In this document: one piece after another, positions 10,668-61,505 of the stretch
Layout of the letters: each line of letters opens with the position of its first letter
Numbering within the stretch: position 1 is the stretch's first letter
The notes under the pieces: model-generated
What the model saw: only the letters and a program-made list of their open reading frames with translations
The model's database searches: none
What the model was told of the DNA's origin: nothing
Translations under genes and position numbers: made by a program
DNA from: Candidatus Omnitrophota bacterium
GTDB taxonomy: Bacteria > Omnitrophota > Gorgyraeia > Zapsychrales > JANLHA01
Assembly (NCBI GenBank): GCA_022711395.1
Contig: JAKLFA010000002.1
Span: 3,864-67,863, forward strand
Direction: 5' to 3'
DNA: 64,000 nucleotides

Positions 10668-10783
10668 TGACGCCAGGACGCTCAGGCGCTGGGAACGTGA
10701 AAATGGCAAGCGGGGAAAAATTTTTGGTTTTGGGTTTTGAGGGGTTTAAAGGTTTATAGTGTCACAGTGTCTTAGTGTCTGGT
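10668..10783 (+). repeat. degenerate family-B palindromic element upstream of cupin gene
   Basis: GACGCTCAGGCGCTGGGAACGTGAAAATGG ... TTTTTGGTTTTGGGTTTTGAGGGGTTTAAAGGTTTAT + AGTGTCACAGTGTCTTAGTGTCT, followed by TTTTTTATAAGAAAGGAAtcttgtATG. Confidence 0.75.
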
Positions 10784-10812
10784 TTATGTTTTTTATAAGA
10801 AAGGAATCTTGT

Positions 10813-11166
10813 ATGTATGAAAATGATACGTTCGTCGAGCGGCCGTGGGGCCGTTATTTCAAACTTTATCAGGAGGCCGGCGTGTGGGTCAAACGGGTGG
10901 AGGTGTCCGCCGGCGGACGCCTGAGCCTTCAAAGGCATCACAAGCGGTCGGAAAAGTGGGTCGTTGTGCGCGGTCGTGGGGAAGCGATCGTGGACAATGT
11001 CCGCTATATGCTGGGGCCGGGTTCCATTTTGGACATCCCGGTCAGCAGTGAGCACCGTATCGCCAATATCGGCCAGGATTCGCTGGTTTTTATCGAGGTC
11101 GCCACCGGCGAGTATTTAGGGGAAGACGATATTACGCGCATTCAGGATGATTACGCGCGGGAATGA
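10813..11166 (+). CDS. cupin-domain protein (mannose-6-phosphate isomerase type II C-terminal cupin-like)
   Basis: ERPWGRYF...GGRLSLQRHHKRSEKWVVVRG cupin signature. ATG 10813 with RBS AAGGAA; the longer ORF start at 10759 lies inside a repeat element. Confidence 0.7.
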   Translation: MYENDTFVERPWGRYFKLYQEAGVWVKRVEVSAGGRLSLQRHHKRSEKWVVVRGRGEAIVDNVRYMLGPGSILDIPVSSEHRIANIGQDSLVFIEVATGEYLGEDDITRIQDDYARE

Positions 11167-11202
11167 CAGAGGAAAATAGTTTTTAAGGTTTGCGCGCCTT
11201 GT

Positions 11203-12594
11203 TTAGATCTTGCGCAAATGGCTGGGGAGGATGTTAAGCTGTTTTCGGTATTTGGTGATGGTCCGGCGCGCGACCTTGATGCCGCGCTTTTTGAGCTCGT
11301 CGATGATCTCCTGGTCGGAAAGGGGATGCCTTTTGTCTTCGTGCTCGATCAAATCCTGCAGTTCCTCTTTGATGCTGCGGTTGGAGACCGCCTGCCCTCC
11401 GTGGGCGTCCACGCGCCCCACGCTTTGAGAAAAGAAATATTTTAACGGGATCACCCCTTGCGGAGTGTCCATGTATTTATTGTGGATGGCCCGGCAGATC
11501 GTCGATTCATTGCGGTCCAGGGCCGATGCCACATCCCGCAGAGTCATGGGTTTGAGGGACATGTGCCCGTGTTCAAAGAAATCCTTCTGCTGTTCCAGGA
11601 TGAACTCCGCGATGCGCTTGATCGTGCTGCCGCGCTGTTCGATGCTGCGGATGAATTGCAAGGCCTCGGTCAGTTTCTCTTTAATAAAAGCGCGTTCCTT
11701 GTCGCTTAAGTTCTCGCGGTTCAGCAGCTCCCGGTAGAGCGAGTTGATGCGCAGACGCGGCAGGCCGCGTTCGTTGACTTCCACGATCAGCCGTTCATTG
11801 TCCTCCTGGTCCTTGCGCACGACGATATCCGGGCGGACGTAATGGTTGGTTGGCAGGGGCCTGTGGTTGCGGGCCGGCCTGGGATCAAGGGCCGTGATCA
11901 ACTGCGCGCTGCTGCGCACGCAGTCGACGGAAACGCCCAGCGAGCGGGCGATGTCCTGGAACCGCTTGTGCCCCAGGTCATCCAAATGCTGGTCGATGAT
12001 CTTTAAGGAAAGCTGCGCGTGTCCGTTAAAATGGAATTTGGCCTGGGTCATCAGGCATTCCTTCAGGTCGCGCGAAGCGATGCCTACGGGTTCATAGCCC
12101 TGGATGACCTTTAGGACCTCCAGCACCGGATCGATATCGGCAAGGCCCAGCATCTCCGCGATCTCTTCGCAGCTGACGGTCAGATAACCGTCGTCATCCA
12201 GGTCTCCGATGATCAATTCGCCGATCTTGATCTTCAGCGGGTCGGAAAAATCGGAATGGAGCTGCTGCAGGAGTTTGGTTTCCAGGCTTTCGTGGGACTT
12301 GATCGGCCGCTCGGTCTGCTCTTCCGTGCTCTGGCTGAAAAAATGGTATTCCCCGGATTCTAAGAGCTGGTCGATCTCGTTTTGAAGGCTTGCTTCAAGC
12401 GGAGATTCCGCCCTGGCGTCTTTAAGGTCCTCGGTTTCCGTGGGATCGGCCTCCAGTAAGGGATTCTTTTCCAATTCCTGTTCAATGGTCTGTTCCAGTT
12501 CTGCCATCGGCAGAAGCAAGACCTCGATGCTTTGCTGCATGAGGGGAGCCAGGATCTGTTTTTGAACTTGGATTTGTGTTTGTTTTAAGTTCAT
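11203..12594 (-). CDS. rpoN: RNA polymerase sigma-54 factor
   Basis: 463 aa. C-terminal RpoN box ARRTITKYR, an HTH and the sigma-54 core-binding region; acidic N-terminal region. Confidence 0.95.
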   Translation of the reverse strand: MNLKQTQIQVQKQILAPLMQQSIEVLLLPMAELEQTIEQELEKNPLLEADPTETEDLKDARAESPLEASLQNEIDQLLESGEYHFFSQSTEEQTERPIKSHESLETKLLQQLHSDFSDPLKIKIGELIIGDLDDDGYLTVSCEEIAEMLGLADIDPVLEVLKVIQGYEPVGIASRDLKECLMTQAKFHFNGHAQLSLKIIDQHLDDLGHKRFQDIARSLGVSVDCVRSSAQLITALDPRPARNHRPLPTNHYVRPDIVVRKDQEDNERLIVEVNERGLPRLRINSLYRELLNRENLSDKERAFIKEKLTEALQFIRSIEQRGSTIKRIAEFILEQQKDFFEHGHMSLKPMTLRDVASALDRNESTICRAIHNKYMDTPQGVIPLKYFFSQSVGRVDAHGGQAVSNRSIKEELQDLIEHEDKRHPLSDQEIIDELKKRGIKVARRTITKYRKQLNILPSHLRKI

Positions 12595-12931
12595 TTTTGG
12601 TATGCCATTTATTCAAGGGAAGCTAACGTGAAAAAAGTATATCACAGTGAAAGAATGTTTTGCAAATAAAACACCGCAAAAATTTTAAGATTTTTAAAAA
12701 ATTTTGTCAATTTTTTGAACATGTATTGGGGTGATAATTAACAACACATTTATAAATTCTTTTGGTATAATAACTTGCAAATCTTACTAGGACAGTCCTG
12801 GACAGGTATGTTTATTCAAATAAACATTGGTAAAAACCTTGAACATCCCTGAAGTTTTAAAGACCGTTCAAATCAAGGAGATTATTGAAAGAATCCGGCC
12901 ATTCGCGCTGATTTTTAAGAAAAGACGTGTT

Positions 12932-12946
12932 TGGCACGTGTCTTGC
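12932..12946 (+). promoter_or_regulatory. sigma-54 (-24/-12) promoter TGGCAC-N5-TTGC
   Basis: TGGCACgtgtcTTGCT at 12932-12947, about 95 nt upstream of the HTH gene (13039) that heads the EPS export operon. rpoN is encoded divergently immediately upstream. Confidence 0.6.
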
Positions 12947-13038
12947 TTTCACTACCTTACATGCTTGAGTGCGGGCAGCATTTTAAACAGCGAAGCAATT
13001 TCATTCAGGCTTGACACTCAGAATAAGGAGGAAGGCGA

Positions 13039-14310: not shown

Positions 14311-14540
14311 GACACAGGACACATGACACACGACACACGAAAACCTTAAAAACAGAAAAAAGACACAGGACACATGACACATGACACACGACACACGAAA
14401 ACCTTAAAAACAGAAAAAAGACACAGGACACATGACACATGACACAGGACACACGAAAACCTTAAAAACAGAAAAAAGACACAGGACACATGACACATGA
14501 CACAGGACACAGGACACAGGACACATGACACATGACACAT
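14311..14540 (+). repeat. higher-order tandem array: 4 units of ~58 bp, each (GACACAN)x4-5 + AAAACCTTAAAAACAGAAAAAA (family A)
   Basis: Direct reading of the sequence. An inverted partner TTTTAAGATTTTCGTGTGTCATGTGTCTTT lies at 14683-14711. No unique spacers, so not CRISPR. Confidence 0.9.
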
Positions 14541-14727
14541 GGGAAAACAGAAACAAAAACCGGGGATTAATACGCGTCTGAGGTGAGAGGACGCTTAAAA
14601 TAGCATGAAGCAGGATTTGGCAGTTCGTTCCTTATAATTTTAATGATTTTGATTTGTATTTTTTCGTATGCTTTGTTTTTATTTTAAGATTTTCGTGTGT
14701 CATGTGTCTTTAATTTGAGGAACCCAA

Positions 14728-15546: not shown

Positions 15547-15557
15547 ATTGAATACAA

Positions 15558-15706
15558 GGCACTAAGGCACTAGGACACTACGGCACTGCGAACGTGAAAG
15601 AGAGAAAAGTAAAAACCTCAAGGACAAAAGTGAAGATGAAAAAGATTTTTATTTTACCGGGTTTAAGGTTTTTAGTGTCTTAGTGTCATAGTGCCCTAGT
15701 GTCTCG
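15558..15706 (+). repeat. family-B palindromic element (GGCACTAA/GACACTAC octamer arm ... inverted TAGTGTCTTAGTGTCATAGTGCC arm)
   Basis: Left arm at 15558-15600 including AACGTGAAAG; right arm at 15660-15706 preceded by GGTTTAAGGTTTTT. Followed by TTTTTTTAAGAAAGGAAcgatATG of the next gene. Confidence 0.85.
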
Positions 15707-17645: not shown

Positions 17646-17697
17646 GACACCAGGCACCAGACACACGACACAAGGGGTCCCATGTGTCCTGTGTCGG
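17645..17697 (+). repeat. family-A mini-palindrome (GACACCAGGCACCAGACACACGACACAAGG / CATGTGTCCTGTGTCGG)
   Basis: Inverted heptamer arms around the loop GGTCC, sitting between a stop and the next RBS. Confidence 0.7.
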
Positions 17698-18503: not shown

Positions 18504-18820
18504 CGGCACTAAGGCACCAAGTCACTAAGGCACCAAGTCACTAAGGCACTAAGGCACTAAGGCACTATGACACTAAAAAATCAGGCACTAAGACACTACG
18601 ACACTCAGGCACTAGCAACATCTAGTGGCACGATGTTTTGGTTTAGGGTTTTAGTGTCACAGTGTCTTAGTGTCACAGTGTCTTGTTTTAAGGTTTTAGT
18701 GTCACAGTGTCTTAGTGTCACAGTGTCTTGTTTTAAGGTTTTAGTGTCATAGTGCCGTAGTGTCATGGTGTCTTGGTTTAAGGTTTATAGTGTCTCAGTG
18801 TCCTAGTGTCTTAGTGTCTA
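18504..18820 (+). repeat. large family-B palindromic element with a 4 x ~46-bp higher-order array
   Basis: Left arm: tandem octamers GGCACTAA/GGCACCAA/GTCACTAA up to ~18612. Loop contains TGGCACGATG. Right arm: four units [TGTTTTAAGGTTTT + AGTGTCACAGTGTCTTAGTGTCACAGTGTCT]. Confidence 0.9.
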
Positions 18821-20548: not shown

Positions 20549-20550
20549 CG

Positions 20551-22588: not shown

Positions 22589-22672
22589 CGCGACCGGAGG
22601 GAGTCCTGAACGTAGTGAAGGAGAGAGCGGACAACCGAGAACGGAGAGCGGATCATGGATTTTAAGGTTTTA
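22569..22672 (+). repeat. family-C element (GGAGRACGG / GGACGGATAA heptamers + GGATTTTAAGGTTTT core)
   Basis: Direct reading of the sequence. Overlaps the stop of the upstream gene and marks the left edge of the AbiE/nuclease island. Confidence 0.7.
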
Positions 22673-22749
22673 GTAGCTTGTTTTTCAATAAAAATGTGGT
22701 ATGCTATTTCTGTATAAAAGTTATACGTTAGTACCTTAATATATTACTT

Positions 22750-23550: not shown

Positions 23551-24433
23551 AGAAGCATTTGCTGAATTGATCGATCGTGCCGCCTCAGCGGCAGGGTTTT
23601 ATGCGCTTTTGATGGAAAAGGATTATTATTTGACGCTGATCCTTTCAAGGGTCCATGAGCTTTCAGACGATCTGGTGTTTAAAGGAGGGACGTGCCTCAA
23701 TAAGATCTACTATTCGTATTACCGGTTAAGCGAGGACCTGGATTTCAGCATGGTGCTGCCTCAGTATGAGGCCACGCGCACCCAGCGCCGTCAGTGCATA
23801 GGGCCGGTCAAAGACAAGATCGAGTCATTCGCTCAAAGTTTTGATATGCGGATCGAAGGGGCGGATCAAGCCGGGCGCAACGAATCCAGGCAATATGTTT
23901 ATTATTTTGTGTATGATTCGGCGCTGATCCCTTCCCGGCAGATGATCAAGGTTGAGATCGGCTTGAGATTTAACCCGATCCTTCCGGCTGAAGTGGGGGA
24001 AGTGAAGCATAAATTTTTGCACCCGTTTACCGGGGAGCCGCTGTTTGACGGCGGAACGGTCCGCTCTCTGTCTCTTAAGGAGGCTGTGAGCGAAAAGCTC
24101 AGGGCCGCGGCCTTGAGGGAGCCGATCGCGCCGAGGGATTTTTATGATCTGGATTTTGTGATACGGCAGGGCTTTGATCTGGGGGACCCGCAAGTGTTAA
24201 AACTGTTTGCCGCGAAGGTCAAAGAGGACGGGGGCGATCCTGATCCGGAAAAGTACCGGCTCAATCTCGGCCGCCCGGAGCGGGAGATCCATGACATGCG
24301 CTCGCGCATTGAGAATGAGCTGTTTGATGTTTTAACGGCCGGCGAAAGGAAAAATTTTGACCTGGACGCCGCGCTTAAGAGGATCAATCTTGCGATGGAT
24401 GACGGAGAACGGAGAACGGAGAATGGAGAATAG
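23534..24433 (+). CDS. AbiEii/AbiGii-family nucleotidyltransferase toxin
   Basis: LVFKGGTCLNKIYYSYYRLSEDLDFS motif (DUF1814). Confidence 0.8.
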   Translation: MLHRDKEAFAELIDRAASAAGFYALLMEKDYYLTLILSRVHELSDDLVFKGGTCLNKIYYSYYRLSEDLDFSMVLPQYEATRTQRRQCIGPVKDKIESFAQSFDMRIEGADQAGRNESRQYVYYFVYDSALIPSRQMIKVEIGLRFNPILPAEVGEVKHKFLHPFTGEPLFDGGTVRSLSLKEAVSEKLRAAALREPIAPRDFYDLDFVIRQGFDLGDPQVLKLFAAKVKEDGGDPDPEKYRLNLGRPEREIHDMRSRIENELFDVLTAGERKNFDLDAALKRINLAMDDGERRTENGE

Positions 24434-24552
24434 AGGACGGATAATTGATAACGGATAGCGGAGAGAAGATACAAGGAGAACGGGAAACAGAGAACAGATA
24501 ACGGATTTTAAGGTTTTGATTTTTCCGCTTTCCGTCATCTGTTCTCTATCAT
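24401..24552 (+). repeat. family-C palindromic element
   Basis: GGAGAACGGAGAACGGAGAATGGAGAATAG ... GGATTTTAAGGTTTTGATTTTTCCGCTTTCCGTCATCTGTTCTCTATC. The first part encodes the C-terminus ...DDGERRTENGE* of the AbiEii protein. Confidence 0.85.
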
Positions 24553-24620
24553 AAAAGTGTACGTCACCGCTATCGTCAGCAAATATTGCATTAATTTATC
24601 AAATATGTTAAACTATCGTT

Positions 24621-26170: not shown

Positions 26171-27073
26171 ATGGACAAACGCCTTAAAAACATCATTTCC
26201 CGTTTGGAGATCTTTGAGACTGAGATCAAGGACAACGATATCCGTCTCAAAAAACTCCAGTACGCCTGGGAGATCGGCCGCGACGCCTGTCAGTACAAGA
26301 AGGAGACCGGCACGCCGATCAATGAGATCGGCCGCGAATGCGGGATCATGGAATCGACCATGCAGAGGTTTGTGAGGTTTTATCAGTTCTATCCTAAAGG
26401 GTATAAAGAGTCGATCAGCGGAAAGCCTTTGATGTGGGGACACTATATGGCGGTCATGTATGTGCGCGATCAAAAGGAACGGGACTGGTATCTTAAGGAA
26501 GCGGCCCTCAATGAATGGAGCACGCATGAGATACGCCGCCGGGTGCGCAACAATTTTTACGAAAGCGCGGCCGAGGCCTCGCAGGCATCTTCATCCGTCA
26601 ATGGGCAGACGCTTTCGGCAGTGGAGCAGCAGCTCTATACCTACGCGGCGAAGGTCTTAAAGGTCGTGGACGGCGATACGCTCAACGTGGAAGTGGATGT
26701 TGGCTTCTCGATGCGGTATGAGACCAAGCTTCGCCTGCGCGGCATCAACTGCGCGGAGCGCGGAACCAAGAAGGGCGAAGCTGCCAAGAAGTTCGTTGAA
26801 GACGAACTTCTTGGCAAGACACTAAGTCACTATGACACTGAGTCACTAAGCAGTGCCTCGGATTCTAGTGGTTTGGAAGTTCAGTGTCCTAGTGCCTTAG
26901 TGTCTCAGTGTCCAGGTATTGTAATAAGATCGTACAAAAGTGAAAAGTACGGCCGCTTTCTCGCTGATGTTTGGTATCTGAAAGGCGAGACAAACAGCGA
27001 GGCCATCTTAAAAAATGGAAAGCTGTTAAATCAGGTTCTTTTAGATAAGGGTTATGCTCAAAAGGTGGAGTGA
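26171..27073 (+). CDS. DUF1016_N (YhcG-like N-terminal domain) fused to staphylococcal-nuclease-like (SNase/thermonuclease) domain; carries an in-frame repeat insertion
   Basis: N-terminal YAWEIGRD...WGHYMAVMYV...WYLKEAALNEWSTHEIRRRV pattern. SNase motifs LKVVDGDTLNVEV, LRLRGINCAE and EKYGRFLADVWY. Insertion at ~26817-26916 encodes LSHYDTESLSSASDSSGLEVQCPSALVSQCPG. Confidence 0.6.
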   Translation: MDKRLKNIISRLEIFETEIKDNDIRLKKLQYAWEIGRDACQYKKETGTPINEIGRECGIMESTMQRFVRFYQFYPKGYKESISGKPLMWGHYMAVMYVRDQKERDWYLKEAALNEWSTHEIRRRVRNNFYESAAEASQASSSVNGQTLSAVEQQLYTYAAKVLKVVDGDTLNVEVDVGFSMRYETKLRLRGINCAERGTKKGEAAKKFVEDELLGKTLSHYDTESLSSASDSSGLEVQCPSALVSQCPGIVIRSYKSEKYGRFLADVWYLKGETNSEAILKNGKLLNQVLLDKGYAQKVE

Positions 27074-30390: not shown

Positions 30391-30400
30391 GTTCTTTGAA

Positions 30401-31258: not shown

Positions 31259-31266
31259 GAGGGGAT

Positions 31267-39817: not shown

Positions 39818-39880
39818 AGAAACACATAGAAATACAATGGATATACAATGGAAAAACAATTGTGTTTCTATGTATTTCAA
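39818..39880 (+). repeat. intergenic hairpin GAAACACATAGAAATACAATGG ... CAATTGTGTTTCTATGTATTTC
   Basis: Imperfect inverted repeat between ORFs; possible terminator or regulatory hairpin. Confidence 0.5.
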
Positions 39881-39926
39881 CGTATTTGCAAATGTTTTAA
39901 TGTATTTCAAATGAAGGCTGTTAGTT

Positions 39927-45994: not shown

Positions 45995-45995
45995 C

Positions 45996-46130
45996 GGACA
46001 CACGACACATGACACACGACACACGGTATACGACACAGGACACAGGACACAGGACACAGGTTAGAACCCTTGTGCCTTGTGTCTTGTGTCTGTGTGTCTG
46101 GTTTTTGTGTCTTGTGTCTTGTGTCTGCCT
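45996..46130 (+). repeat. family-A palindromic element (GACACAN heptamers / inverted CTTGTGTC array) spanning stop-to-start
   Basis: Direct reading of the sequence. The right arm encodes the Cys/Leu/Val-rich N-terminus of the next ORF. Confidence 0.85.
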
Positions 46131-48963
46131 TTTGGGATGCAGCAAGCTAGAACCTAAAGAAGAAGCGTCTGAATCCAAAAAGGCAATACCGTATGATGCA
46201 AAGAAGGGGATGTTTAGTGATTTTGAAGGATCGGATCCGGTGTCGTGGGGTGGGGTCTCTACGGAGATAGTGCAAGGCGGGGAATGTGGGGAATTGGAAA
46301 ATGGAAAAGGGAATATGGAAAATGGAAAAGTCAAAACCGACAATCATTCAAATCCCTTTTCTATCGTCCATTCTCCATCTTCCAGTACAAATAAATGTTT
46401 AAAAGTGACCTACCCCAAAGGGGATTTTCCAGGCCTTAGCGCTAAGCGTCTGCCGTCGGACTGGTCGAATTTCGGCATATTGGTCATGGATGTTTTTAAT
46501 CCTTCCGAGGAGGTTGTTCCTTTCGGGATCCTTATTAAGGACAAGCCCGGCGGCCACAGCTATCCCAACCGGTTGGACAAGCAGTTTGCGTTTAAACCTG
46601 GTAAAAACAAGTTTATTTTTAATATCACAGGGCTCAAAACCAATGACGGCAAGCGCCAGATGGACCTGTCGCAGATCATGGAATTGATCGTGTTCTTGTC
46701 TCAACCAAAAGAACCGGTCACTCTGTATTTTGATAACATCCGTTTGGAACATGCCGCGGGTTCAGAGATCGAGGGGATGAAGCGTTTTGATCTTGGCACA
46801 CAGGGTTCTGAAGTCTGGCCGGGCTTTTTGCAGGTCACGGACAAGACACATTATAGTGAAGAGGCCGGTTACGGCTGGTCGTATTTAGGCCAGGCGGATG
46901 CTCAGGACAGAGGGCAGTATCCGGATGCTTTGTTTCGGGACTGGATCCGCACGGCAACGCCGTTTAAAGTGGATGTCAAGAACGGCCAGCATGTGGTGTA
47001 TGTGATGCTGGAGGATCCTGGGGCGTGGGAATATTATCAAAATTTTAAAGAGCGCCGGTTTTATGCTGAAGATGTTCTTGTCGGTGAAGACAAGATGACT
47101 CCCGAACAATTTTTTAGCGATCATTATTATCGGCACATGAACCATGAGGACTTTCCCGGACAGGATGTGTTTGAGGAGTATGTGCAGAAGCGTTTTGTCT
47201 GGAAGCGTTTTGTCATCGATGTTGCGGATCGTCAATTGACATTAAAATGCGAGCCGAATACCGCTTATGCCTGCACGATCAGCGCGATCATCACCGCGCC
47301 TCTTGAGCAGGATGATAAAGTTCAGCAATATTTGAAACTTCTCGATCGTCAGCGCAAAGAGTTTTTTGATGGACAGTATGTCGAAAAGGTCCCGCAGTTT
47401 GATTCTCTGGATGAAAAGCTGGTGAAACAATATCAAAGCCTCGGGTTCATCCCGTTTGTCAAAAATTATGATCAGATGTTATATCCTGCAGAACCTCCGA
47501 AAAAGAGTCAAGCGGTTGATCGAATTCAGATCTTCGCGGCACAGGGAGAAAAAGAGCCTTTTGTGATTGGGATCTATCCGCTGCAGGCTGGTGGGCAGTT
47601 GCATGTTGACATAACAGATTTGGTTTTAAATGATGGTGTAAAGATTCCAAGCGATGCAATTTTGATCCGTTGGGTGCAGTACCGTCTAAAACGGATGTAT
47701 AGTGGCAGAGTTTATAGTGTGGTCGGAGATATGTTACGAACTAATAGCCAGGTTGTTTTAAAGAAGGGGCAGACAAGGTATTTTTGGTTTACGGTGAACG
47801 TTTCTAAAGATGCTCGTCCGGGAGATTATAAAGGGTCTGTCATTATTCGTGAGAATAACGTCGAGGTAAAGAGAATCAGCGTGGAGTTGAAAGTTCTTCC
47901 ATTTGGGCTTGATGACCCCGACATTGCGATCGGGTTGTTTTACACGCTGCCTCCGCAGTTCAATTGGTATGAGGAAACACAAAACCAGCGGTGGACTGAG
48001 GTTGAAAGGCAACTTCAGGATATGCGTGACCATGGGATGAACACATTGGCTTTAAGTATTATGCCGGGTGTTAAGGCTATTAATGACAGCGGTGATGCGG
48101 AGTTGGACTTTGCCTTTTTTGATGACTTCCTGCACGCGTATAAGCATTTTGGTTTCGACAGGCCGGTCTCAGGCTATGGGCTGATTAGTGTTTTTCATCA
48201 GATCCGTCAAAAGACCGAAGGTAATCCGAAGCTTTTTGCAAAAGCCATGGAGAATGCGTTCGGCCAGATCCAGTGGCACGCACAGCAAATTGCTGGGGTG
48301 GATATGGTGGCAGGGTTGGCGGATGAGCTTTCTAATACGGGAGGTGCTGGAATCGATTCAATTATTCCAGCAGCGGAGGTATTAAAGAATGCGGGTATAA
48401 GGGCGACAGGATTTTTTAACAATCCAAAAGATATCAAAGTGTTTGATTATTTTTCTGATGTAACGGTAAGCAATGATATACATATTGATCAGGATTTTCT
48501 TTCTAGGGTGGAGAAATCAGGGGCGAATCTTTGGTTTTATAACACGGGCCATGACCGGTTTAGCTTCGGTTTGCATTTGTGGAAGACGAAGGCAAAGGGC
48601 AAGGTGCAGTGGCATTATCAATTGCCGTCTGTGGATCCTTATTTTGACCTGGATGGTAGGGAAGGAGATACATGCGCATCTTATCCATCACCTGCGGGCC
48701 CGATCAATACGGTGTGGTTTGAGCTGGCGCGGGAAGGGATCGATGATTACCGGTATCTTAAAATCCTTGAAAAGATGATGGAAGAGAGAAAAGGGAAGAT
48801 GGATGCGGATGCGACGATAGAGCGTGCTGAAAAGTTTTTAGAAGCGTTGAGGAAAGATATTCCCGTTGAGTTGGATAAGCGTAAAGAAATCCCGGATGAA
48901 TTTTATGATGTGACGCGAAAAACAGCGGCGGACCTTATAACGGAACTATTAAGGACGCCATGA
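46009..48963 (+). CDS. large secreted protein, probable lipoprotein (possible glycoside-hydrolase-like); true start uncertain (GTG/TTG within 46060-46080 plausible)
   Basis: The N-terminal hydrophobic stretch ending in LLGC|S resembles a lipobox. In-frame family-C insert at 46279-46384 (GELENGKGNMENGKVKTDNHSNPFSIVHSPSS). About 900-aa soluble region with no confident family. Confidence 0.45.
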   Translation: MTHDTRYTTQDTGHRTQVRTLVPCVLCLCVWFLCLVSCVCLLGCSKLEPKEEASESKKAIPYDAKKGMFSDFEGSDPVSWGGVSTEIVQGGECGELENGKGNMENGKVKTDNHSNPFSIVHSPSSSTNKCLKVTYPKGDFPGLSAKRLPSDWSNFGILVMDVFNPSEEVVPFGILIKDKPGGHSYPNRLDKQFAFKPGKNKFIFNITGLKTNDGKRQMDLSQIMELIVFLSQPKEPVTLYFDNIRLEHAAGSEIEGMKRFDLGTQGSEVWPGFLQVTDKTHYSEEAGYGWSYLGQADAQDRGQYPDALFRDWIRTATPFKVDVKNGQHVVYVMLEDPGAWEYYQNFKERRFYAEDVLVGEDKMTPEQFFSDHYYRHMNHEDFPGQDVFEEYVQKRFVWKRFVIDVADRQLTLKCEPNTAYACTISAIITAPLEQDDKVQQYLKLLDRQRKEFFDGQYVEKVPQFDSLDEKLVKQYQSLGFIPFVKNYDQMLYPAEPPKKSQAVDRIQIFAAQGEKEPFVIGIYPLQAGGQLHVDITDLVLNDGVKIPSDAILIRWVQYRLKRMYSGRVYSVVGDMLRTNSQVVLKKGQTRYFWFTVNVSKDARPGDYKGSVIIRENNVEVKRISVELKVLPFGLDDPDIAIGLFYTLPPQFNWYEETQNQRWTEVERQLQDMRDHGMNTLALSIMPGVKAINDSGDAELDFAFFDDFLHAYKHFGFDRPVSGYGLISVFHQIRQKTEGNPKLFAKAMENAFGQIQWHAQQIAGVDMVAGLADELSNTGGAGIDSIIPAAEVLKNAGIRATGFFNNPKDIKVFDYFSDVTVSNDIHIDQDFLSRVEKSGANLWFYNTGHDRFSFGLHLWKTKAKGKVQWHYQLPSVDPYFDLDGREGDTCASYPSPAGPINTVWFELAREGIDDYRYLKILEKMMEERKGKMDADATIERAEKFLEALRKDIPVELDKRKEIPDEFYDVTRKTAADLITELLRTP

Positions 48964-50387
48964 AAATCCTATTTCTTACCAAAGAACTTCCTTATCCCAT
49001 CAATTCCGGCGCGCGGATGCGTAGCTGGCATTATGTCCGTGGCCTAAGCCGGGCGGGCTATGTCCACATGGTATGTTTTGGCAGGCTTGAGGACAATCGT
49101 GAAGGCGCCAAGACGCTGAGGGAAATGGGCGTGGATGTGATCTTTGAAGATAAAGGTGGCAGACGCCTTTATCCGGTTCTGTCGCGGCTTGTGGGCCTGT
49201 TTTCACCATTGCCGTACGCGGTTTGGGTCCGCAGGTCTTCTGCAATGAAGGAGAAAATTCGCCGGATCATTCTTGAGTCGAGCTGTGAAGTCGCCGCTTG
49301 TGACGGTATCCATCAGGCCTTGAACATCCCGCTGGATGTGAACTGCCGAAAGATCCTGGATGAACATAATGTTGAGTCGACGCTCGTTGGCCGTTATGCG
49401 GCAGCCGAATCCAATCCGGTCAAAAAAACGTACGCGTTTTTAGAATGGCTGAAATTCCGCGCCTTTGAGAACCGGATGTGGAAAAAATTTGATGAGATCC
49501 ACGTCTGTTCTTCGGTTGATAAACATGAGGTGGAGAAGCGGACTGGGCACAAGAATGTGCATGTTGTGCCTAACGGCGTTACTATCGAGTCACTAAGGCA
49601 CTATGACACTAAGGCACTAAAAAATACCGACACTGAGGCGCCAAGACACTGTGACACTAAAACATCAGGTGTTGCTAGTGCCATAGTGTCTCAGTGTCTA
49701 GTGTCACCAAGCGGAGATAAGCCGTTCCGTTTGGTTTATAGCGGTTTGATGGGTTGGAAACCTAACGAAGATGCGGCGCTTTACTTCGGGCACAATATTT
49801 GGCCTGAAATAAAAAAGGCACTAAGGCACTGCGACACTAAGGCACTAAAAAATCAAGGCACTGGGGCACTAAGACACTGTGACACTAAAACTTCCGATGG
49901 TTCTAGTGCCATAGTGTCTGAGTGTCATAGTGTCTCAATTGAGTGGTTTATAGTTGGAAGAGGGCCTACTCAAAAAGTAAAAGAATTGGCTGAGAATGAT
50001 GAGTCGATCACCGTCACCGGCGAGGTCGCGGACGTGAAGCCGTTGGTGGAGTCTGCGGATATCGTGATCGTGCCCTTGCGGATCGGAAGCGGGACCCGGC
50101 TGAAGATTTTGGAAGCTATGGCCATGAGTAAGCCCGTTGTCTCGACCTCGATCGGGTGTGAAGGCCTGGATGTCACCAGTGGTGAAAATATTGTGATCGC
50201 TGATATGCCGGAGGATTTTGCGAGTACGGTTTTAAAATTAATGAACGATCCTCAAGAGCGCGCGCGTATTGCCGAGAATGGGCGCAGGTTGGCGGAAGAG
50301 AAGTATGATTGGGAGATTATTGAAAAAAGTTTAGCGGAATTAATCATGACACTCAGGCACAAAGACACTGAGGCACTGAGAACGTGA
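48960..50387 (+). CDS. glycosyltransferase family 4 with two complete in-frame family-B palindromic insertions and a repeat-derived C-terminal tail
   Basis: GT4 core (PLRIGSGTRLKILEAMAMSKPVVSTSIGCEGLDV). Inserts at 49591-49708 and 49817-49936 each encode ~RHYDTKALKN...RHCDTKTS...SAIVSQC.... Tail ...LRHKDTEALRT* at 50347+. Confidence 0.8.
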   Translation: MKILFLTKELPYPINSGARMRSWHYVRGLSRAGYVHMVCFGRLEDNREGAKTLREMGVDVIFEDKGGRRLYPVLSRLVGLFSPLPYAVWVRRSSAMKEKIRRIILESSCEVAACDGIHQALNIPLDVNCRKILDEHNVESTLVGRYAAAESNPVKKTYAFLEWLKFRAFENRMWKKFDEIHVCSSVDKHEVEKRTGHKNVHVVPNGVTIESLRHYDTKALKNTDTEAPRHCDTKTSGVASAIVSQCLVSPSGDKPFRLVYSGLMGWKPNEDAALYFGHNIWPEIKKALRHCDTKALKNQGTGALRHCDTKTSDGSSAIVSECHSVSIEWFIVGRGPTQKVKELAENDESITVTGEVADVKPLVESADIVIVPLRIGSGTRLKILEAMAMSKPVVSTSIGCEGLDVTSGENIVIADMPEDFASTVLKLMNDPQERARIAENGRRLAEEKYDWEIIEKSLAELIMTLRHKDTEALRT

Positions 50388-50468
50388 AAACGTGAAAAGT
50401 GAAAATGGGGAAAGACATTTTGGTTTTGGGGTTTTTAGTGCCATAGTGTCTTAGTGTCACAGTGTCTT
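50347..50468 (+). repeat. family-B palindromic element bridging two genes
   Basis: Left arm GACACTCAGGCACAAAGACACTGAGGCACTGAG + AACGTGAAAACGTGAAAAGTGAAAATGG. Right arm TTTTGGTTTTGGGGTTTTT + AGTGCCATAGTGTCTTAGTGTCACAGTGTCT. Confidence 0.85.
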
Positions 50469-50483: not shown

Positions 50484-51671
50484 ATGACTTTCTTTTTCTA
50501 TTTATTTTTATTTCTCATTTTCTACACCTACATCGGTTATCCGGTCTTGATCGCTTTTGTTTCGCAGTTCTTTCGGGAAGATGGAAAAGGGAAGATGGAA
50601 AGGGGAAAATCCAAAGCAGAGGATAATTCGCAGCCATTCTCCATCATCCATTCTCCATTTTCGGTTTCAATAATTATTCCTGCCTATAACGAGGAAGAAG
50701 CGATCGCGCAGAAGCTCGAGGAGGTCCTAGCGTTTGATTATCCCAAAGACAAGCTGGATGTCATGGTTGTTTCGGATTGTTCAGTTGACCGGACGGATGA
50801 AATTGTGCGTGGGTTTGAATCCCGCGGTGTGCGATTGCTCCGCATGGAAAAGCGCGGCGGCAAGATCGCCGGCTACAAGGCGGCAGTGGCGCAGGCTGCG
50901 GGCGAAATTCTGGTTTTTTCGGATGCGACCAGCCGTATGGAACCCGGCGGTTTAAAAAAGCTGCTCCGTCCGTTTGCTGATCCTGACGTGGGTGTTGTCG
51001 CCGGGCGGCTGGTATATATCGACCCTAAAAAGGCAGACATTGCCAAAGGGGAACAGACCTATTGGAGCTATGAAGGCCGGATCAAGGATTGGGAAGAAAA
51101 GATCTTTTCGCTCACGTCTGTTTCAGGGACGTTTTACGGGGTCCGTAAAGAATTGTTTCCTTTAGAAATGGCCAATGACCTGGCTGATGATCTGATCGTG
51201 GTCTTGAATTGTGTTCTGCACGGCAAGCGCGCGGTGCTTGAAAAGGAGGCCGTCTGCCGTGAATACGCGATCCACGCGGATTCCGCGGAAGTGAATAAGC
51301 GTTCGCGGATCACGGTGCAGAACCTGCGCGGCTTATTCAGTATGCCGCGGATGATGGATCCGTTCAAATTTGGCTGGTATGCGGTGTTGATCATTTCGCA
51401 TAAGTTATTGCGCGCTCTGGTGCCGGTTTTTTTGGTCGGGGTCTTGATCAGCAATATTTTTATTGTCGAGCAATGGTGGATGTTTCGTTTGATTCTGGTG
51501 GCGCAGATCGGGTTTTATATGCTGGGGGCGCTGGCCAGCGTCTGGCAGGACAAGCGGCCCAGATGGCTGAATATCATTTATTATTTTTGCGTGAGCAATC
51601 TGGCGATTCTGTGGGGTATTATCCGGTTTTTGCGCGGCGAGCGCATGGCGACGTGGGAAACCGCGCGTTAA
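50484..51671 (+). CDS. membrane glycosyltransferase family 2 with an in-frame family-C insertion
   Basis: GT2 motifs (IIPAYNEEEAI, VVSDCSVDRT, VFSDATS). Insert at 50577-50663 encodes EDGKGKMERGKSKAEDNSQPFSIIHSPFSVS. Start at 50484 chosen because it lies just after the repeat. Confidence 0.8.
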   Translation: MTFFFYLFLFLIFYTYIGYPVLIAFVSQFFREDGKGKMERGKSKAEDNSQPFSIIHSPFSVSIIIPAYNEEEAIAQKLEEVLAFDYPKDKLDVMVVSDCSVDRTDEIVRGFESRGVRLLRMEKRGGKIAGYKAAVAQAAGEILVFSDATSRMEPGGLKKLLRPFADPDVGVVAGRLVYIDPKKADIAKGEQTYWSYEGRIKDWEEKIFSLTSVSGTFYGVRKELFPLEMANDLADDLIVVLNCVLHGKRAVLEKEAVCREYAIHADSAEVNKRSRITVQNLRGLFSMPRMMDPFKFGWYAVLIISHKLLRALVPVFLVGVLISNIFIVEQWWMFRLILVAQIGFYMLGALASVWQDKRPRWLNIIYYFCVSNLAILWGIIRFLRGERMATWETAR

Positions 51672-57204: not shown

Positions 57205-58431
57205 ATGTTAAAAAAGATCCTGGTCACTGGTGGCGCTGGTTTTATCGGTTCACACACGGTTGTGGAACTGGCCAATGCCGGTTATGAGCCGGTGATCGTG
57301 GATAATTTCAGCAATTCCAGCCGCGGCGTCCTTAAAAACCTCAAAAAGATCCTCGCCCGTGAAGTCACCTGTTATGATGGCGACTGCTGTGACCGTTTGT
57401 TTCTTGAACAGGTTTTTACCAAAGAGAAAAATATTCAGGGAGCGATCCATTTCGCGGCGCTCAAGGCGGTGGGGGAGTCGGTCAAAGAGCCGCTCTTGTA
57501 TTACCGTAACAATATCGATTCGCTGCTCGTCTTGCTGGACGTGATGAAGGAGTATGGCGCACAGCTGTTCGTGTTTTCTTCATCGGCGACTGTTTACGGC
57601 GCGGCGGACCGGCTGCCGGTCACCGAAGAAACTCCGCTTAAGCCTGCGGAATGCCCGTATGGCGTGACCAAGCAGGTGGGAGAGCAGATCGTGCGGGACG
57701 CGGTCACAGCCGGTTACGGCTTAAAGGCGGTTTCTTTGAGGTATTTCAATCCGATCGGCGCGCACGAAACCGCCCTGATCGGAGAACTTCCGATCGGCGT
57801 GCCCAAAAACCTGGTTCCCTATGTCACCCAGGTCGCTGCCGGCCTGTTGCCGGAGCTGACCGTGCACGGCAATGATTATTCGACACCGGACGGGACTCCT
57901 ATCCGTGATTATATCCATGTCCTTGATTTGAGTGCGGCCCATGTCGCGGCGTTGAAATATTTAACTAAGACACTAGGACACTATGACACTAAGGCACTAA
58001 GAAACAAAAACGCTGAGGCACTAAGACACTGTGACACTAAAAAATCAGATGTTACGAGTGCCATAGCTCTGCGGAATTCGCAGAATTCCTCAGAATTAGT
58101 CCCCGGAGGGATGTCTGAGTGTCATAGTGCCGATGGTTTGAGTGCCTTAGTGCCTGAGTGTCTCAGTGCCTCAGTTGGTTATGATGTCTTCAATCTCGGC
58201 ACCGGCAAAGGCAACAGCGTGATGGAAGTGATCTCGACATTTGAAAAGGCCACCGGCGTGAAGCTCAAATATAAGATCGGCCCGCGCCGTCCCGGGGACA
58301 TTGAATCGATCTATGCGGACGCTTCCAAAGCGGAAAAATTACTGGGCTGGAAAGCAAACCGCTCTTTGTCCGACTCATTGAAGAGCGCGTGGGAGTGGCA
58401 GAAGAATATCAGCATAAAGGGTAAAGCGTAA
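57205..58431 (+). CDS. galE: UDP-glucose 4-epimerase with ~70-aa in-frame family-B palindromic insertion
   Basis: Classic GalE N-terminus MLKKILVTGGAGFIGSHTVVEL, the YGVTK (YxxxK) motif and C-terminal FNLGTGKGNSVMEV. Insertion at 57966-58173, between ...AAHVAALKYL and GYDVFNLG, encodes TKTLGHYDTKALRNKNAEALRHCDTKKSDVTSAIALRNSQNSSELVPGGMSECHSADGLSALVPECLSASV. Confidence 0.85.
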   Translation: MLKKILVTGGAGFIGSHTVVELANAGYEPVIVDNFSNSSRGVLKNLKKILAREVTCYDGDCCDRLFLEQVFTKEKNIQGAIHFAALKAVGESVKEPLLYYRNNIDSLLVLLDVMKEYGAQLFVFSSSATVYGAADRLPVTEETPLKPAECPYGVTKQVGEQIVRDAVTAGYGLKAVSLRYFNPIGAHETALIGELPIGVPKNLVPYVTQVAAGLLPELTVHGNDYSTPDGTPIRDYIHVLDLSAAHVAALKYLTKTLGHYDTKALRNKNAEALRHCDTKKSDVTSAIALRNSQNSSELVPGGMSECHSADGLSALVPECLSASVGYDVFNLGTGKGNSVMEVISTFEKATGVKLKYKIGPRRPGDIESIYADASKAEKLLGWKANRSLSDSLKSAWEWQKNISIKGKA

Positions 58432-58445
58432 AGGGCAGGCAAACG

Positions 58446-59121: not shown

Positions 59122-60042
59122 ATGAAAAAGCATTATCCGTTTTTTCTTTCATTTTTCCTGGTTTTACTGGCATACGTGCCGACGTTCGACTGGATGCGGA
59201 TCCGGTGGTTTTCGGCCAGTTCGTATTACAGCCACGGGGTCCTTGTTCCGTTCGTCGTGGCGTATCTGATCTGGCAGAAGTGGCCGGAAATATTGGAGAC
59301 ACTAAGGCACTGTGACACTAAGACACTGAAAGACACGGAGACGCCACGACACTCAGACACGATGACACTAAAAAACAAAGGCGCTGAGGCGCCAGATGTT
59401 GCAAGTGTCACAGTGTCACAGTGCCCTAGTGCCTTAGGATTACCGTTAATCGTGATAGGGTTATTGGCCCATATCTTCAGTTCCGTGATGCGGGTGGGGT
59501 TCATTTCCGGCTTTTCCATGTGGGTGGTCCTGGCCGGGCTGATCCTGCATTTTTACGGGATGAAAATGTTCAAGACCGTGCTGTTTCCGCTGGTGTTTCT
59601 GCTTTTTATGATCCCGTTGCCTGAACTCATTGTGGTCAATGTTTCGTTCCGGATGAAGATGTTCGCCGCCGGGATCGCGGAGAAGGTCATTAACGCCATG
59701 GGTATTTTGGCGATCAGGGAGGGCAGCGTGATCCGCATGCCCAATGCCTTTGTGGTGGTGGATGATGTCTGTTCGGGCCTGCGCAGCCTGATCTCTCTGA
59801 CGGCGCTGGGAAGTATTTTTGCCTACTGGTTCAAGGGCCCGATGTGGAAGCGCTGGCTGGTGTTTGCCATGACCGCTCCGATCGCGGTGGCCACAAACGT
59901 CTGCCGGGTGGTGCTTTTGTCTTTTGTCGCCGAAGTCTGGGGGCATGAGGCGGCCAGCGGCTTTGTGCACGATCTTTCGGGGTTTAGCGTATTCGCCCTG
60001 GCGTTTCTGATGCTGTTGGCGTTCGGGAAGATGATTGAATGA
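59122..60042 (+). CDS. xrtA: exosortase (EpsH/XrtA-type) with in-frame family-B palindromic insertion
   Basis: N-terminal ...SYYSHGVLVPFVVAYLIW and DDVCSGLRSL (active-site Cys region). Multiple TM helices. Insertion at 59297-59438 encodes ETLRHCDTKTLKDTETPRHSDTMTLKNKGAEAPDVASVTVSQCPSALG. Assignment to the A subtype is inferred from the EpsI gene nearby. Confidence 0.8.
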   Translation: MKKHYPFFLSFFLVLLAYVPTFDWMRIRWFSASSYYSHGVLVPFVVAYLIWQKWPEILETLRHCDTKTLKDTETPRHSDTMTLKNKGAEAPDVASVTVSQCPSALGLPLIVIGLLAHIFSSVMRVGFISGFSMWVVLAGLILHFYGMKMFKTVLFPLVFLLFMIPLPELIVVNVSFRMKMFAAGIAEKVINAMGILAIREGSVIRMPNAFVVVDDVCSGLRSLISLTALGSIFAYWFKGPMWKRWLVFAMTAPIAVATNVCRVVLLSFVAEVWGHEAASGFVHDLSGFSVFALAFLMLLAFGKMIE

Positions 60043-60048: not shown

Positions 60049-60097
60049 TGACACTAAGGCACTAAGGCACTAAGGCACTGAGACACTAAGGCACTAA
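60049..60097 (+). repeat. family-B left arm (GACACTAAGGCACTAAGGCACTAAGGCACTGAGACACTAAGGCACTAA)
   Basis: Forms the left half of a giant palindrome whose right half is at 60512-60647; the four-helix-bundle gene lies in the loop. Confidence 0.85.
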
Positions 60098-60147
60098 AAG
60101 AAATCATCCCAAAAGTAATCCCCTAGAGAAATAACACGGAGGATGAA

Positions 60148-60507
60148 ATGGGTGAGCAGGTAGGATATAAAAAACTTTTTGTATGGCAGAAGGCAGATCA
60201 ATTTGCATTTGAGATTTATGGTGCGAGCGAGGGTTTTCCGAGGAAGGAAATGTTTGGTCTGACATCACAGTTGAGGAGAGCGGCTTTATCGATTCCAACA
60301 AATTTGGCAGAAGGTCAGGGCCGGCAGGGCAGGAAAGAGTTCCGGCAATTTGTGAATATTGCATTGGGTTCTGCGACAGAGGTTGAGTATTTGTTAGATT
60401 TTGCGTGTCGTTTAAAGTATTTGGATGAAAAGGCGAGTATCCGATTGCAGGGTCTTCGCAGGGAAGTTAGTTCGCTGTTGTGGAAGTTATTACAAAGTTT
60501 GTCTTAA
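60148..60507 (+). CDS. four-helix-bundle protein (23S rRNA intervening-sequence protein family, TIGR02436-like)
   Basis: 119 aa with ...KADQFAFEIYGASEGFPRKEMFGLTSQLRRAALSIPTNLAEGQGR...ALGSATEVEYLLDFA..., characteristic of this family. Confidence 0.8.
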   Translation: MGEQVGYKKLFVWQKADQFAFEIYGASEGFPRKEMFGLTSQLRRAALSIPTNLAEGQGRQGRKEFRQFVNIALGSATEVEYLLDFACRLKYLDEKASIRLQGLRREVSSLLWKLLQSLS

Positions 60508-60511
60508 TCGG

Positions 60512-60647
60512 TTTTTAGTGTTTTTAGTGCCGTAGTGTCTTAGTGTCACAGTGTCTTGTTTTAGGTTTTCAGTGCCATAGTGCCTTAGTGTCATAGTGTC
60601 TTGTTTTAGGTTTTCAGTGCCATAGTGCCTTAGTGTCCTAGTGTCTT
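60512..60647 (+). repeat. family-B right arm, 2 x [AGTGCCATAGTGCCTTAGTGTCATAGTGTCT + TGTTTTAGGTTTTC]
   Basis: Reverse complement of the octamer array at 60049-60097. Ends 15 bp before the RBS region of epsI. Confidence 0.85.
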
Positions 60648-60665
60648 TTACAGTAAGGATTTTCC

Positions 60666-61304
60666 ATGAAAAAACATTTCTTTTTTATTCTCATTATTAC
60701 GTTGACTATTGTCGCAGGCGCGGTGTCCTGGTCGATGTTTTTGCGGACGCATGATGCGCAGGACACGGTGGATGTGTTCGATTTTCCCATGGTCATAGGA
60801 GAATGGGAATCTGAAAACATCCCGATCTCGGACAATGATTACGCGGTCCTTGAGACGCGCAACGCCTTTGTCCGCATCTACCGCAAGCCCACCGGCGAAG
60901 AGGTGATGCTTTACGTGATCTATTCCCAGACCAACCGCCGCGTGGCGCATCCTCCGGAGATCTGCTACACCGGCGGAGGGTCCACCATTGTGAGCAAATT
61001 CCCTGAAAAGATCGCGACGGACGCTGTCACGGACGGTTCCATCACCGCTAACCGGCTTCTCATTGATTATCCCAATTATCAGCAGATCATGTATTACTGG
61101 TTCAAGGTCGGCAATAGTTACACGGCCAGTTACTGGGCCGGCCAGGCGATGATCGCCTGGAAAAACATGACCGGCCAGTCGTCCAGCAGCGCGTTGATCC
61201 GTTTGACCTCAGTGGTTGAGGATGATGACCAGCAGCGCGCTGTTGATATCATCCGCGGGTTTGCCGCGGAGATCCTGCCGCTTCTTAATCAATACATTCC
61301 ATAA
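60666..61304 (+). CDS. epsI: EpsI-family protein (exosortase-associated)
   Basis: N-terminal TM helix. ...VIGEWES...VIYSQTNRRVAHPPEICYTGGGS matches the EpsI signature (HxPExC...G). Confidence 0.75.
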   Translation: MKKHFFFILIITLTIVAGAVSWSMFLRTHDAQDTVDVFDFPMVIGEWESENIPISDNDYAVLETRNAFVRIYRKPTGEEVMLYVIYSQTNRRVAHPPEICYTGGGSTIVSKFPEKIATDAVTDGSITANRLLIDYPNYQQIMYYWFKVGNSYTASYWAGQAMIAWKNMTGQSSSSALIRLTSVVEDDDQQRAVDIIRGFAAEILPLLNQYIP

Positions 61305-61308
61305 AGCG

Positions 61309-61505
61309 GGCACTAAGGCACTAAGGCACTAAGGCACTAAGGCACTAAGGCACTAAGGCACTAAGGCACTAAGGCACTAAGGCACTAAGGCACTAAGGCA
61401 CTAAGGCACTAAGGCACTAAGGCATTGGTATCTTAGTGACTAGGTTTTAAGGGTTTAAGGTTTTTAGTGTCTCAGTGTCATAGTGTCCTAGTGTCTTGTT
61501 TTAAG
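61309..61505 (+). repeat. (GGCACTAA) x ~14.5 perfect tandem octamer array followed by inverted family-B arm
   Basis: 61309-61424 is a pure 8-mer array. It is followed by GGTTTTAAGGGTTTAAGGTTTTTAGTGTCTCAGTGTCATAGTGTCCTAGTGTCTTGTTTTAAG. Confidence 0.95.

Follow-up and report, generated by a model that had tools for sequence, protein, structure and literature searches.

Several classes of small palindromic repeats have been described from bacterial genomes, and they are compared here with the repeats of a stretch of 64,000 nucleotides from a Candidatus Omnitrophota bacterium (contig JAKLFA010000002.1), hereafter called the window. The window repeats are tandem arrays of short units, chiefly of three families (A, GACACNN; B, GRCACTNN, as in GRCACTAA; C, GGAGAAY-like), and their typical layout is a forward array followed by a reverse-complement array. 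We attribute a probability of roughly 60% to the reading that these arrays are gene-less copies of small palindromic elements whose full form carries a PF05635 gene in the loop, gene and repeat being paired as in the REPIN-RAYT systems and with no known transposase. The comparison establishes them as a distinct variant of small palindromic repeat elements, characterized by four-unit tandem arms, several unit families, frequent in-frame residence in enzymes of envelope biosynthesis and a PF05635-carrying full form that is found across phyla.

The Rickettsia palindromic elements (RPEs) are palindromes of unique sequence, about 100-150 bp long, which occur in Rickettsia only and have neither tandem-unit arms nor an associated gene. 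Like them, the window repeats are short palindromes lying within many conserved open reading frames (ORFs), where they keep the frame and would add an extra peptide, and they are also found between genes. Unlike the RPEs, their arms are made up of four units of 7-8 nt, they belong to several unit families and they have a gene-carrying counterpart. So many in-frame repeat insertions in the essential envelope enzymes of one operon are rare outside Rickettsia, and their build is different here. The Correia elements of Neisseria (NEMIS) have terminal repeats of 26 bp, a duplicated TA target and an integration host factor (IHF) site. They resemble the window repeats as abundant small inverted-repeat elements that alter neighbouring genes or transcripts, but no such terminal repeats, TA duplication or IHF site are evident in the window elements, whose ends are tandem units.

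In the REPIN-RAYT systems, a single-copy gene lies between inverted copies of a repeat that is otherwise dispersed without the gene, and each paralogue has its own repeat family. The same is seen here, since the gene-less repeats match those flanking the gene in the window and in two related loci, L001 and L002 (family B in all three), and do so for two families in a third, L006. Nevertheless, the flanked gene encodes PF05635, a non-catalytic four-helix bundle, and not an IS200/IS605-type (Y1) transposase. The arms are tandem arrays, whereas REPs (repetitive extragenic palindromic sequences) are imperfect palindromes of 20-40 bp with a GTAG or CGTC end, and the window copies are intragenic as well. 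A RAYT reading was rejected because the flanked gene is PF05635 and no Y1 transposase was found among the 58 scanned window ORFs.

The heptamer repeats of cyanobacteria (short tandemly repeated repetitive sequences, STRR), of Xanthomonas and Nostoc (GGGNATC) and of Beggiatoaceae (TAACTGA) share with the window repeats units of 7-9 nt, a mode of four units, a position near stop or start codons and the formation of inverted pairs. They are located 0-50 bp from stop or start codons, frequently as convergent pairs (70-75 per Xanthomonas genome), and are depleted in coding regions; their phyletic spread was taken to suggest horizontal transfer with "no mechanism evident", their preference for four units was attributed to G-quadruplexes, or a regulatory role was proposed, and no link to PF05635 was made (PMC4692102, PMC4679880). 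The units GACACNN, GRCACTAA and GGAGAAY contain no GGG runs capable of forming a G-quadruplex, and the G-quadruplex account of the four units therefore fails here. Heptamer tandem repeats, known since about 1990, have so far lacked a mechanism, and a link to PF05635 would give them an origin that can be tested.

The ORF-containing intervening sequences of 23S rRNA have in common with the window elements a PF05635 ORF inside an inverted-repeat stem and a host gene product that tolerates the extension. They differ from them in that the hosts in the window are protein genes or operon spacers, not rRNA, and that the gene-less copies appear to be translated rather than excised by RNase III. Finally, Avd of the diversity-generating retroelements shares its fold and family with the window protein. 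Avd is pentameric and basic and binds both nucleic acid and reverse transcriptase, as an accessory factor of a copying machine. A diversity-generating retroelement was considered and rejected: the window PF05635 protein scores 23 bits against the Avd model (DivGenRetAVD), for a cut-off of 80, the window contains no reverse transcriptase and there is no template/variable repeat pair nearby.

The only full-length element of the window is a family-B copy at 60050-60647, between xrtA and epsI. Its gene is intact and encodes a protein of 119 aa belonging to PF05635 (Pfam E = 3e-35) and TIGR02436, known as "23S rRNA intervening-sequence protein", with solved homologues in 2GSC (XCC0516 of Xanthomonas) and 2RLD. 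PF05635 has been called functionally uncharacterised (bioRxiv 10.1101/2024.02.27.582315). A PF05635 cassette also lies at the corresponding place in L001, where the gene is shortened to 56 aa; in L002 the cassette is intact. L006, which is more distant, contains two PF05635 genes surrounded by inverted arrays of different units, GCNCTAG and AAGGATR, and gene-less hairpins of exactly these two families lie in the neighbouring spacers and inside its GalE. The L006 cassettes fill the spacers that hold gene-less arrays in the window (17646-17671 and 18505-18819). Gene-less copies of a unit family co-occur with the gene-carrying form.

The association is not restricted to Omnitrophota. The PF05635 alignment was scanned against one genome per species, which provided 80 loci from Planctomycetota, Acidobacteriota, Chloroflexota, bacteria of the candidate phyla radiation (CPR), Bacteroidota, Cyanobacteriota, Nitrospirota, Bacillota and Alphaproteobacteria. 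At a score of at least 15, inverted flanking repeats were detected around 76% of the 62 PF05635 genes with full flanks and around 0.8% of 124 mock genes in the same loci (Mann-Whitney p = 5e-25). Tandem arrays are present on both sides of the gene in 64 of the 80 loci and at least one adjacent array in 74, with periods of 7 nt (88 arrays), 8 nt (39) and 9 nt (10) and a modal copy number of about 4; array density is 3.26 per kb beside the gene against 0.38 per kb farther off. Unit similarity follows protein identity (Spearman 0.25, permutation p <= 0.0005), and near-identical units occur in 59% of the protein pairs that are at least 70% identical. One PF05635 clade with 73-85% identity keeps a common unit in Planctomycetota, WOR-3, Ignavibacteria and Gemmatimonadota, which implies that gene and arms were transferred together: they are one heritable, horizontally transferred unit. 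As a test of the prediction, metagenomes were scanned for four GACACNN units, the signature of family A, and yielded 80 loci totalling 361 kb. A PF05635 ORF was found in four of them, abutting the array in all four; the inverted partner array is clear in three and only partial in the fourth (L147).

The same architecture is found in finished plasmids of cultured cyanobacteria. In pNPUN02 of Nostoc punctiforme, the PF05635 gene is flanked by CAGGAGT arrays and their complement. On a plasmid of Picosynechococcus PCC 7003 (NZ_CP016476.1, 126024-127487; L210) it stands between inverted GGAGATAA arrays, and the cassette is inserted between cas10/cmr2 and cmr3 of a type III-B operon. PF05635 has been reported to be enriched in cas loci, with a Pleurocapsa gene at the corresponding cas10/cmr3 position (PMC3936711). 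The published "CRISPR association" of the family may be due to the hitch-hiking of such cassettes, and the PF05635 genes of cas operons may have to be re-read in this way. A separate observation concerns the alpha and gamma plasmids of Nostoc PCC 7120 (L207 and L208), where an identical PF05635 gene lies beside a transposase gene, annotated as ISL3 on gamma. There the CTCTGCC array is limited to the downstream side, the upstream arm having apparently been lost.

Under our preferred reading, and by analogy with the systems described above, PF05635 would act as a mobility or specificity factor. The protein would recognise the repeat units of its own element and would maintain or drive their copying, as the RAYT transposase does for REPIN repeats. 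Gene-less copies would arise by loss of the loop gene, the truncated gene of L001 representing a possible intermediate, and would then propagate in trans. New copies would land or survive preferentially in existing hairpin loops, a preference that would explain both their nesting and the repeated use of sites, and selection would keep only the stop-free, frame-keeping copies in tolerant loops. We regard it as quite possible, if short of probable, that PF05635 is the specificity factor of an unrecognised class of transposase-less mobile hairpins, which would cover the heptamers of the STRR, Xanthomonas and Beggiatoaceae together with their four-unit rule, the ORF-containing rRNA intervening sequences and the "CRISPR-associated" PF05635 genes. 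If so, a stop-free sub-lineage would be colonising protein loops in Omnitrophota, and a very common protein family would have a suggested role. In the literature searched, from which subscription-only papers were excluded, we found no prior link of PF05635 to tandem-repeat arms and no prior description of the element.

Several observations weigh against this reading. Only one PF05635 gene accompanies the approximately 26 arrays of the window, and the partner gene of family A, the family covered by the partner scan, is known solely from unrelated metagenome contigs. We know of no catalytic activity in PF05635, and no transposase, recombinase, reverse transcriptase or RAYT was found among the 58 sizeable non-nested window ORFs that were scanned. 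The arms are only 75-92% complementary. When the empty GalE site of L001 was compared to the filled site of the window, neither a target-site duplication nor sharp element ends could be identified, the junctions being unresolvable at 78% identity. The association between gene and arrays would equally follow if PF05635 cassettes merely favoured pre-existing hairpin loops, and the reuse of sites in relatives could be explained by evolution in place as well as by re-insertion. Lastly, it is the intact reading frames that suggest translation of the inserts into disordered surface loops.

The arrays themselves were surveyed with Tandem Repeats Finder, which detected period-7 and period-8 arrays by the dozen between 10.6 and 61.5 kb, and with a pattern scan of our own for G[AGT]CAC / GTG[CTA]C cores, which identified 45 arrays. 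They are grouped in about 26 separate loci, of which 13 are fully intragenic, four form the end or start of a gene and nine are intergenic. Besides families A, B and C, the window contains AGCGTAA units (family D, 58411), GACGC units (10669) and a unit of 11 nt (39829-39910). The loci are listed below; all are on the + strand.

10665..10782: intergenic hairpin with GACGC/GGCGC units in the forward arm and GTGTC units in the reverse arm; 12 G:U pairs as + strand RNA.
14311..14710: family-A composite of 3.5 modules of 58 nt (4-5 GACACNN units and a AAAACCTTAAAAAC tail), a 9-unit array and a reverse arm (14671-14708).
15556..15706: family-B hairpin of 4 + 4 units, intergenic between the AAA_22 and Wzz genes (z -7.1).
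17646..17671: family-A-like array of four units without partner arm, filling the spacer between a hypothetical gene and a ParA-like gene.
18505..18819: family-B composite; 13 units in the forward direction, then four reverse modules of 45 nt (4 units and GTTTTAAGGTTTT).
22623..22675: family-C forward array followed by the TTTTAAGGTTTT motif.
24397..24560: family-C hairpin whose forward array forms the C-terminus and stop codon of an AbiEii gene; motif and reverse arm at 24506-24555.
26814..26914: family-B hairpin, in frame in the SNase domain of ORF 26171..27073.
39595..39619: array of 3.6 GGAGGAT units, in frame in a Wzy_C-family gene; reverse arm not clear.
39770..39910: GAAAAGG array at the Wzy C-terminus, and spacer hairpin of units of about 11 nt (GAAATACAATG / GTATTTCAA).
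40685..40713: four family-A units in reverse orientation without partner arm, in frame in GT4 39927..41096; peptide DLCLVSCVLCLG.
40938..41012: family-C hairpin, in frame near the C-terminus of GT4 39927..41096 (z -6.6).
45352..45378: family-A array of four units without partner arm, in frame in GT4 44786..45994; peptide QTHDTGHRTQD.
45481..45507: family-A array of four units without partner arm, in GT4 44786..45994 in the same frame as at 45352; peptide MTHDTRHTTQG.
45851..45879: family-A array of four units without partner arm, in GT4 44786..45994 in the same frame as at 45352; peptide MTHDIRHMTQG.
45995..46134: family-A hairpin (about 9 + 8 units) between the GT4 gene and a GH123-like gene; the reverse arm encodes a hydrophobic stretch ending in LLGC (z -8.0).
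46289..46330: family-C-like array of five TGGAAAA units, in frame in the GH123-like protein.
49587..49707: family-B hairpin, in frame in GT4 48960..50387, site 1 (interdomain linker).
49815..49937: family-B hairpin, in frame in GT4 48960..50387, site 2.
50346..50468: family-B hairpin across the GT4 stop codon, with the C-terminal TLRHKDTEALRT encoded in its forward arm and its end upstream of the GT2 start (z -8.8).
50570..50662: family-C hairpin, in frame in GT2, following the N-terminal membrane helix and preceding the catalytic domain.
57962..58176: family-B hairpin, in frame in GalE (residues ~254-324), with a nested 65-nt element at 58057-58121.
58411..58433: array of 3.3 AGCGTAA units (family D), forming the C-terminal tail of GalE.
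59294..59438: family-B hairpin, in frame in the exosortase XrtA.
60050..60647: full-length family-B element with a 6-unit forward array (60050-60097), the intact PF05635 gene (60148..60507) and three 45-nt reverse modules (60513-60647).
61309..61499: family-B hairpin in which 14.5 perfect GGCACTAA units precede the motif and a reverse arm of four units.

This survey agrees in large part with a first-pass annotation of the window made from the sequence alone, which had recognised three array families (GACACAN, GRCACTAA and GGAGAAY-like) in more than 25 copies, had considered them related to each other, and had told them apart from the RPEs and Correia elements, as their architecture indeed does. 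Its statement that every copy is palindromic does not hold throughout: the arrays at 17646, 40685, 45352, 45481 and 45851, and probably those at 39595 and 46289, lack a clear partner arm (six or seven arrays). Similarly, it placed at least 15 copies inside ORFs, whereas 13 are fully internal and the other four only form gene ends or starts. The strict four-unit arms, the nesting and the arrays without partner had been overlooked, and the trio of families that it took to be self-contained now looks like the gene-less form of the PF05635-carrying element at 60050-60647.

Exactly four octamers make up 23 of the 26 family-B arrays, and four units are also found in the family-A arrays that have no partner arm. 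The stems consist of 7-bp helices in which one mismatch per unit acts as a separator. Folding of the hairpins, a check proposed in the first-pass annotation, gave z = -4.2 to -8.8 relative to dinucleotide shuffles for seven hairpins of families B and A and one of family C; the mixed hairpin at 10665 and two family-C copies (50570 and 24440) are weak (z ~ -2). In families A, B and C, as well as in a fourth family in L001, the reverse arm is immediately preceded on its 5' side by the motif TTTTAAGGTTTT, whose complement comes after the forward arms. It is because of this common motif that the three families are counted as related. As to their placement, the copies at 24397, 50346, 58411 and 45997 form the C- or N-terminus of a gene. 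The arrays at 10669, 14311, 15556, 17646, 18505, 45997, 60050 and 61309 start 1-10 nt past a stop codon and the intergenic copies finish 8-27 nt ahead of the next start, so that the whole spacer is filled.

Evidence for copying comes from GalE and XrtA. Positions 59298-59431 of the XrtA insert match part of the L005 GalE insert at 91% identity (121/133), the loop being included; L005 is a near-identical sister genome whose GalE is 96% identical to that of the window outside the insert. The window and L005 GalE inserts have common outer arms and different inner hairpins. The 91% identity shows, at the level of sequence, that stop-free hairpin versions are themselves copied between genes, and together with the differing inner hairpins it implies that whole stop-free hairpins would move or recombine between genes, inside existing hairpin loops. 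One may alternatively suppose that the hairpins arise and enlarge locally through slippage, template switching and gene conversion between copies, with no dedicated mobility protein, and that the PF05635 cassette is a separate selfish gene that lands in loops. Unit numbers do vary between close relatives (6 vs 2 at one site), 14.5 perfect units follow each other at 61309, and the alike outer arms and unlike inner parts of the two GalE inserts resemble conversion between copies; growth in place would also agree with the reuse of sites in different lineages and with the target-site duplication and transposase that were not found. Yet slippage fails to account for strict four-unit arms, and the motif shared by the unit families, the covariation of protein and unit across phyla and the presence of a 133-nt hairpin with the same loop in two different genes are left unexplained. 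We regard this alternative as unlikely.

The hosts of the in-frame copies named in the first-pass annotation were recovered by Pfam (Wzy_C, three GT4s, GT2, Exosortase_EpsH and a protein with DUF1016_N and SNase domains, to which a GH123-like protein and AbiEii can be added) and, for GalE, by homology. A database fragment that matches the first 256 GalE residues at 100% identity is assigned to an uncultured Omnitrophota bacterium. The start of GT2 is ATG 50484 and not GTG 50454, but its family-C hairpin is internal all the same. That the frame is maintained, as had also been claimed, is true by the very definition of an ORF; it is backed by orthologue alignments that span both flanks of the insert in GalE, XrtA and GT4 48960..50387 and by Pfam domains that run across inserts. 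These alignments, which the first-pass annotation had called for, show that the inserts are lineage-specific. The window GalE has 408 aa and its close relatives 407, 377, 356 and 343 aa, the difference lying at a single site between a helix and a strand. This site is empty in the 343-aa protein of L001 (P0004), contains an insert from another, family-C-like repeat in P0003, and is occupied by still other repeats in farther Omnitrophota. The AlphaFold model, the structural check that had been suggested, predicts a low-confidence loop for residues 258-323 (predicted local distance difference test, pLDDT < 50) with a confident helix (239-257) on one side and a confident strand (326-331) on the other. 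At the identical codon position, the XrtA of the syntenic L001 (78% nucleotide identity) has a different insert, made of GCGTAGA and GGAGAAC units. Typical orthologues of GT4 48960..50387 have about 395 aa and no insert, and its two family-B sites hold other repeat-derived peptides in other Omnitrophota relatives. Repeat sites thus vary among relatives both in occupancy and in the occupying family, and the repeatedly occupied loops of GalE, XrtA and GT4 can serve as markers of insertion-tolerant sites.

The stop avoidance noticed in the first-pass annotation is real, and either selection or frame-specific insertion may be responsible for it. Stops are absent from the frame used by the intragenic copies of family B and number 3-9 in each of their other two frames; intergenic copies have stops in all three. 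The stop-free variant has TAT or TGT in place of TAA in the unit that falls in the reading frame, and GATGGTT or GATGTT in place of the TTTTAAGG motif. The peptides expected on translation include RHYDTKALR and SALVPECLSASVG. When an 80-aa concatenated insert peptide was searched against a set of 5.8 billion proteins, 11 candidates were returned, none of which scored.

Another possibility is that the hairpins are RNA elements useful to the host, acting in operon transcripts as stabilisers, RNase III sites or attenuators, and that PF05635 is an RNA-binding regulator with autoregulatory sites. The copies do fill spacers between co-directional genes of an exopolysaccharide operon, and the related Xanthomonas heptamer repeats are mostly transcribed (PMC4692102). 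The mismatches of intergenic hairpins are nearly all G:U on the + strand, and these copies are more stable as + strand (sense) RNA than as the opposite strand (8 v 3, 6 v 0, 8 v 2, 7 v 2, 12 v 1 and 5 v 0 G:U pairs). This asymmetry is nonetheless not decisive as proof of RNA-level selection, as + strand deamination would account for it equally well under the strong GC skew of the window, which is positive in 31 of 32 two-kb bins; the cumulative skew climbs nearly without interruption, and the + strand carries nearly all genes. A search of the whole window with Rfam at gathering thresholds recovered a single tRNA (3679-3751) and no family for the hairpins. The hairpins were missed by a consensus terminator scan, whose limits on loop and stem are too small for them and whose totals approximate the shuffle expectation. 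A function in RNA is moreover hard to reconcile with copies in coding loops and with the fast replacement of families at one site, and we hold it to be quite improbable.

The palindromic, dispersed, multi-family pattern is also reminiscent of MITEs (miniature transposable elements with inverted repeats), REPINs and RPEs, and the view offered by the window is limited to 64 kb of the genome. Ordinary elements of MITE or REP type could then be moved by a classical transposase or RAYT encoded elsewhere, PF05635 being their cargo. However, the gene associated with the arms is PF05635 in 74 of the 80 loci across phyla and not a transposase; none was found among the 58 scanned window ORFs or next to the cassettes of L001, L002 and L006, and the arms are tandem units instead of unique terminal repeats. 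Such a scenario seems very unlikely to us. As for an assembly artefact or pseudogenised hosts, a concern that the first-pass annotation itself had raised, repeats do assemble poorly in metagenomes and the 14.5 perfect units at 61309 could stem from assembler collapse or expansion. Nevertheless, the elements are present in independent assemblies (NCBI genome bins, JGI and Logan) as well as in the finished cyanobacterial plasmids, and all host ORFs are open and align with orthologues on both flanks of the insert, which leaves hardly any room for this explanation.

Some further features of the window and its relatives deserve mention. The array at 61309-61424 (14.5 GGCACTAA units) is the sole long error-free one, and reflects either a very recent expansion or a length estimated by the assembler. 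Arrays with a periodicity of 45 or 58 nt, composed of a four-unit arm and a constant spacer, occur at 18623-18819, 60513-60647 and 14311-14511 and could be miscalled as CRISPR by automatic tools; a CRISPR array was rejected on account of the near-identical "spacers" (GTTTTAAGGTTTT). An element of about 65 nt, rich in GAATTC (CTGCGGAATTCGCAGAATTCC...TCCCCGGAGGGATG), is nested in frame in the GalE insert of the window (58057-58121) and occurs three times in L001 (898-961, 1835-1898 and 5764-5825), where it is intergenic and each time inside family-B reverse arrays. Its behaviour is that of a "rider" targeting repeat arrays. Also in L001, inverted AGCGTAG / TACGCTC arrays (2964-2986 and 3705-3724) enclose a DUF5674 gene and a 110-aa gene, a pair that suggests a second type of cargo; at the AGCGTAA site of the window (58411-58433) the forward array alone remains.

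Translation of the reverse arm in the family-A hairpin at 46009-46140 gives LVPCVLCLCVWFLCLVSCVCLLGC, just ahead of the mature GH123-like protein, and the start ATG lies in the forward arm. The hairpin may thereby provide the lipoprotein signal peptide and lipobox of this protein. A low-GC block at 27300-39500 (35-42% vs about 50-55% elsewhere) contains glycosyltransferase, flippase and related genes and none of the repeat elements, which fits a recent acquisition of the block and a build-up of elements with residence time. Finally, three pairs made up of an unannotated gene of about 210-266 aa followed by an AbiEii nucleotidyltransferase toxin (22750-24433, 24621-26059 and 51883-53372) are dispersed in the polysaccharide locus.

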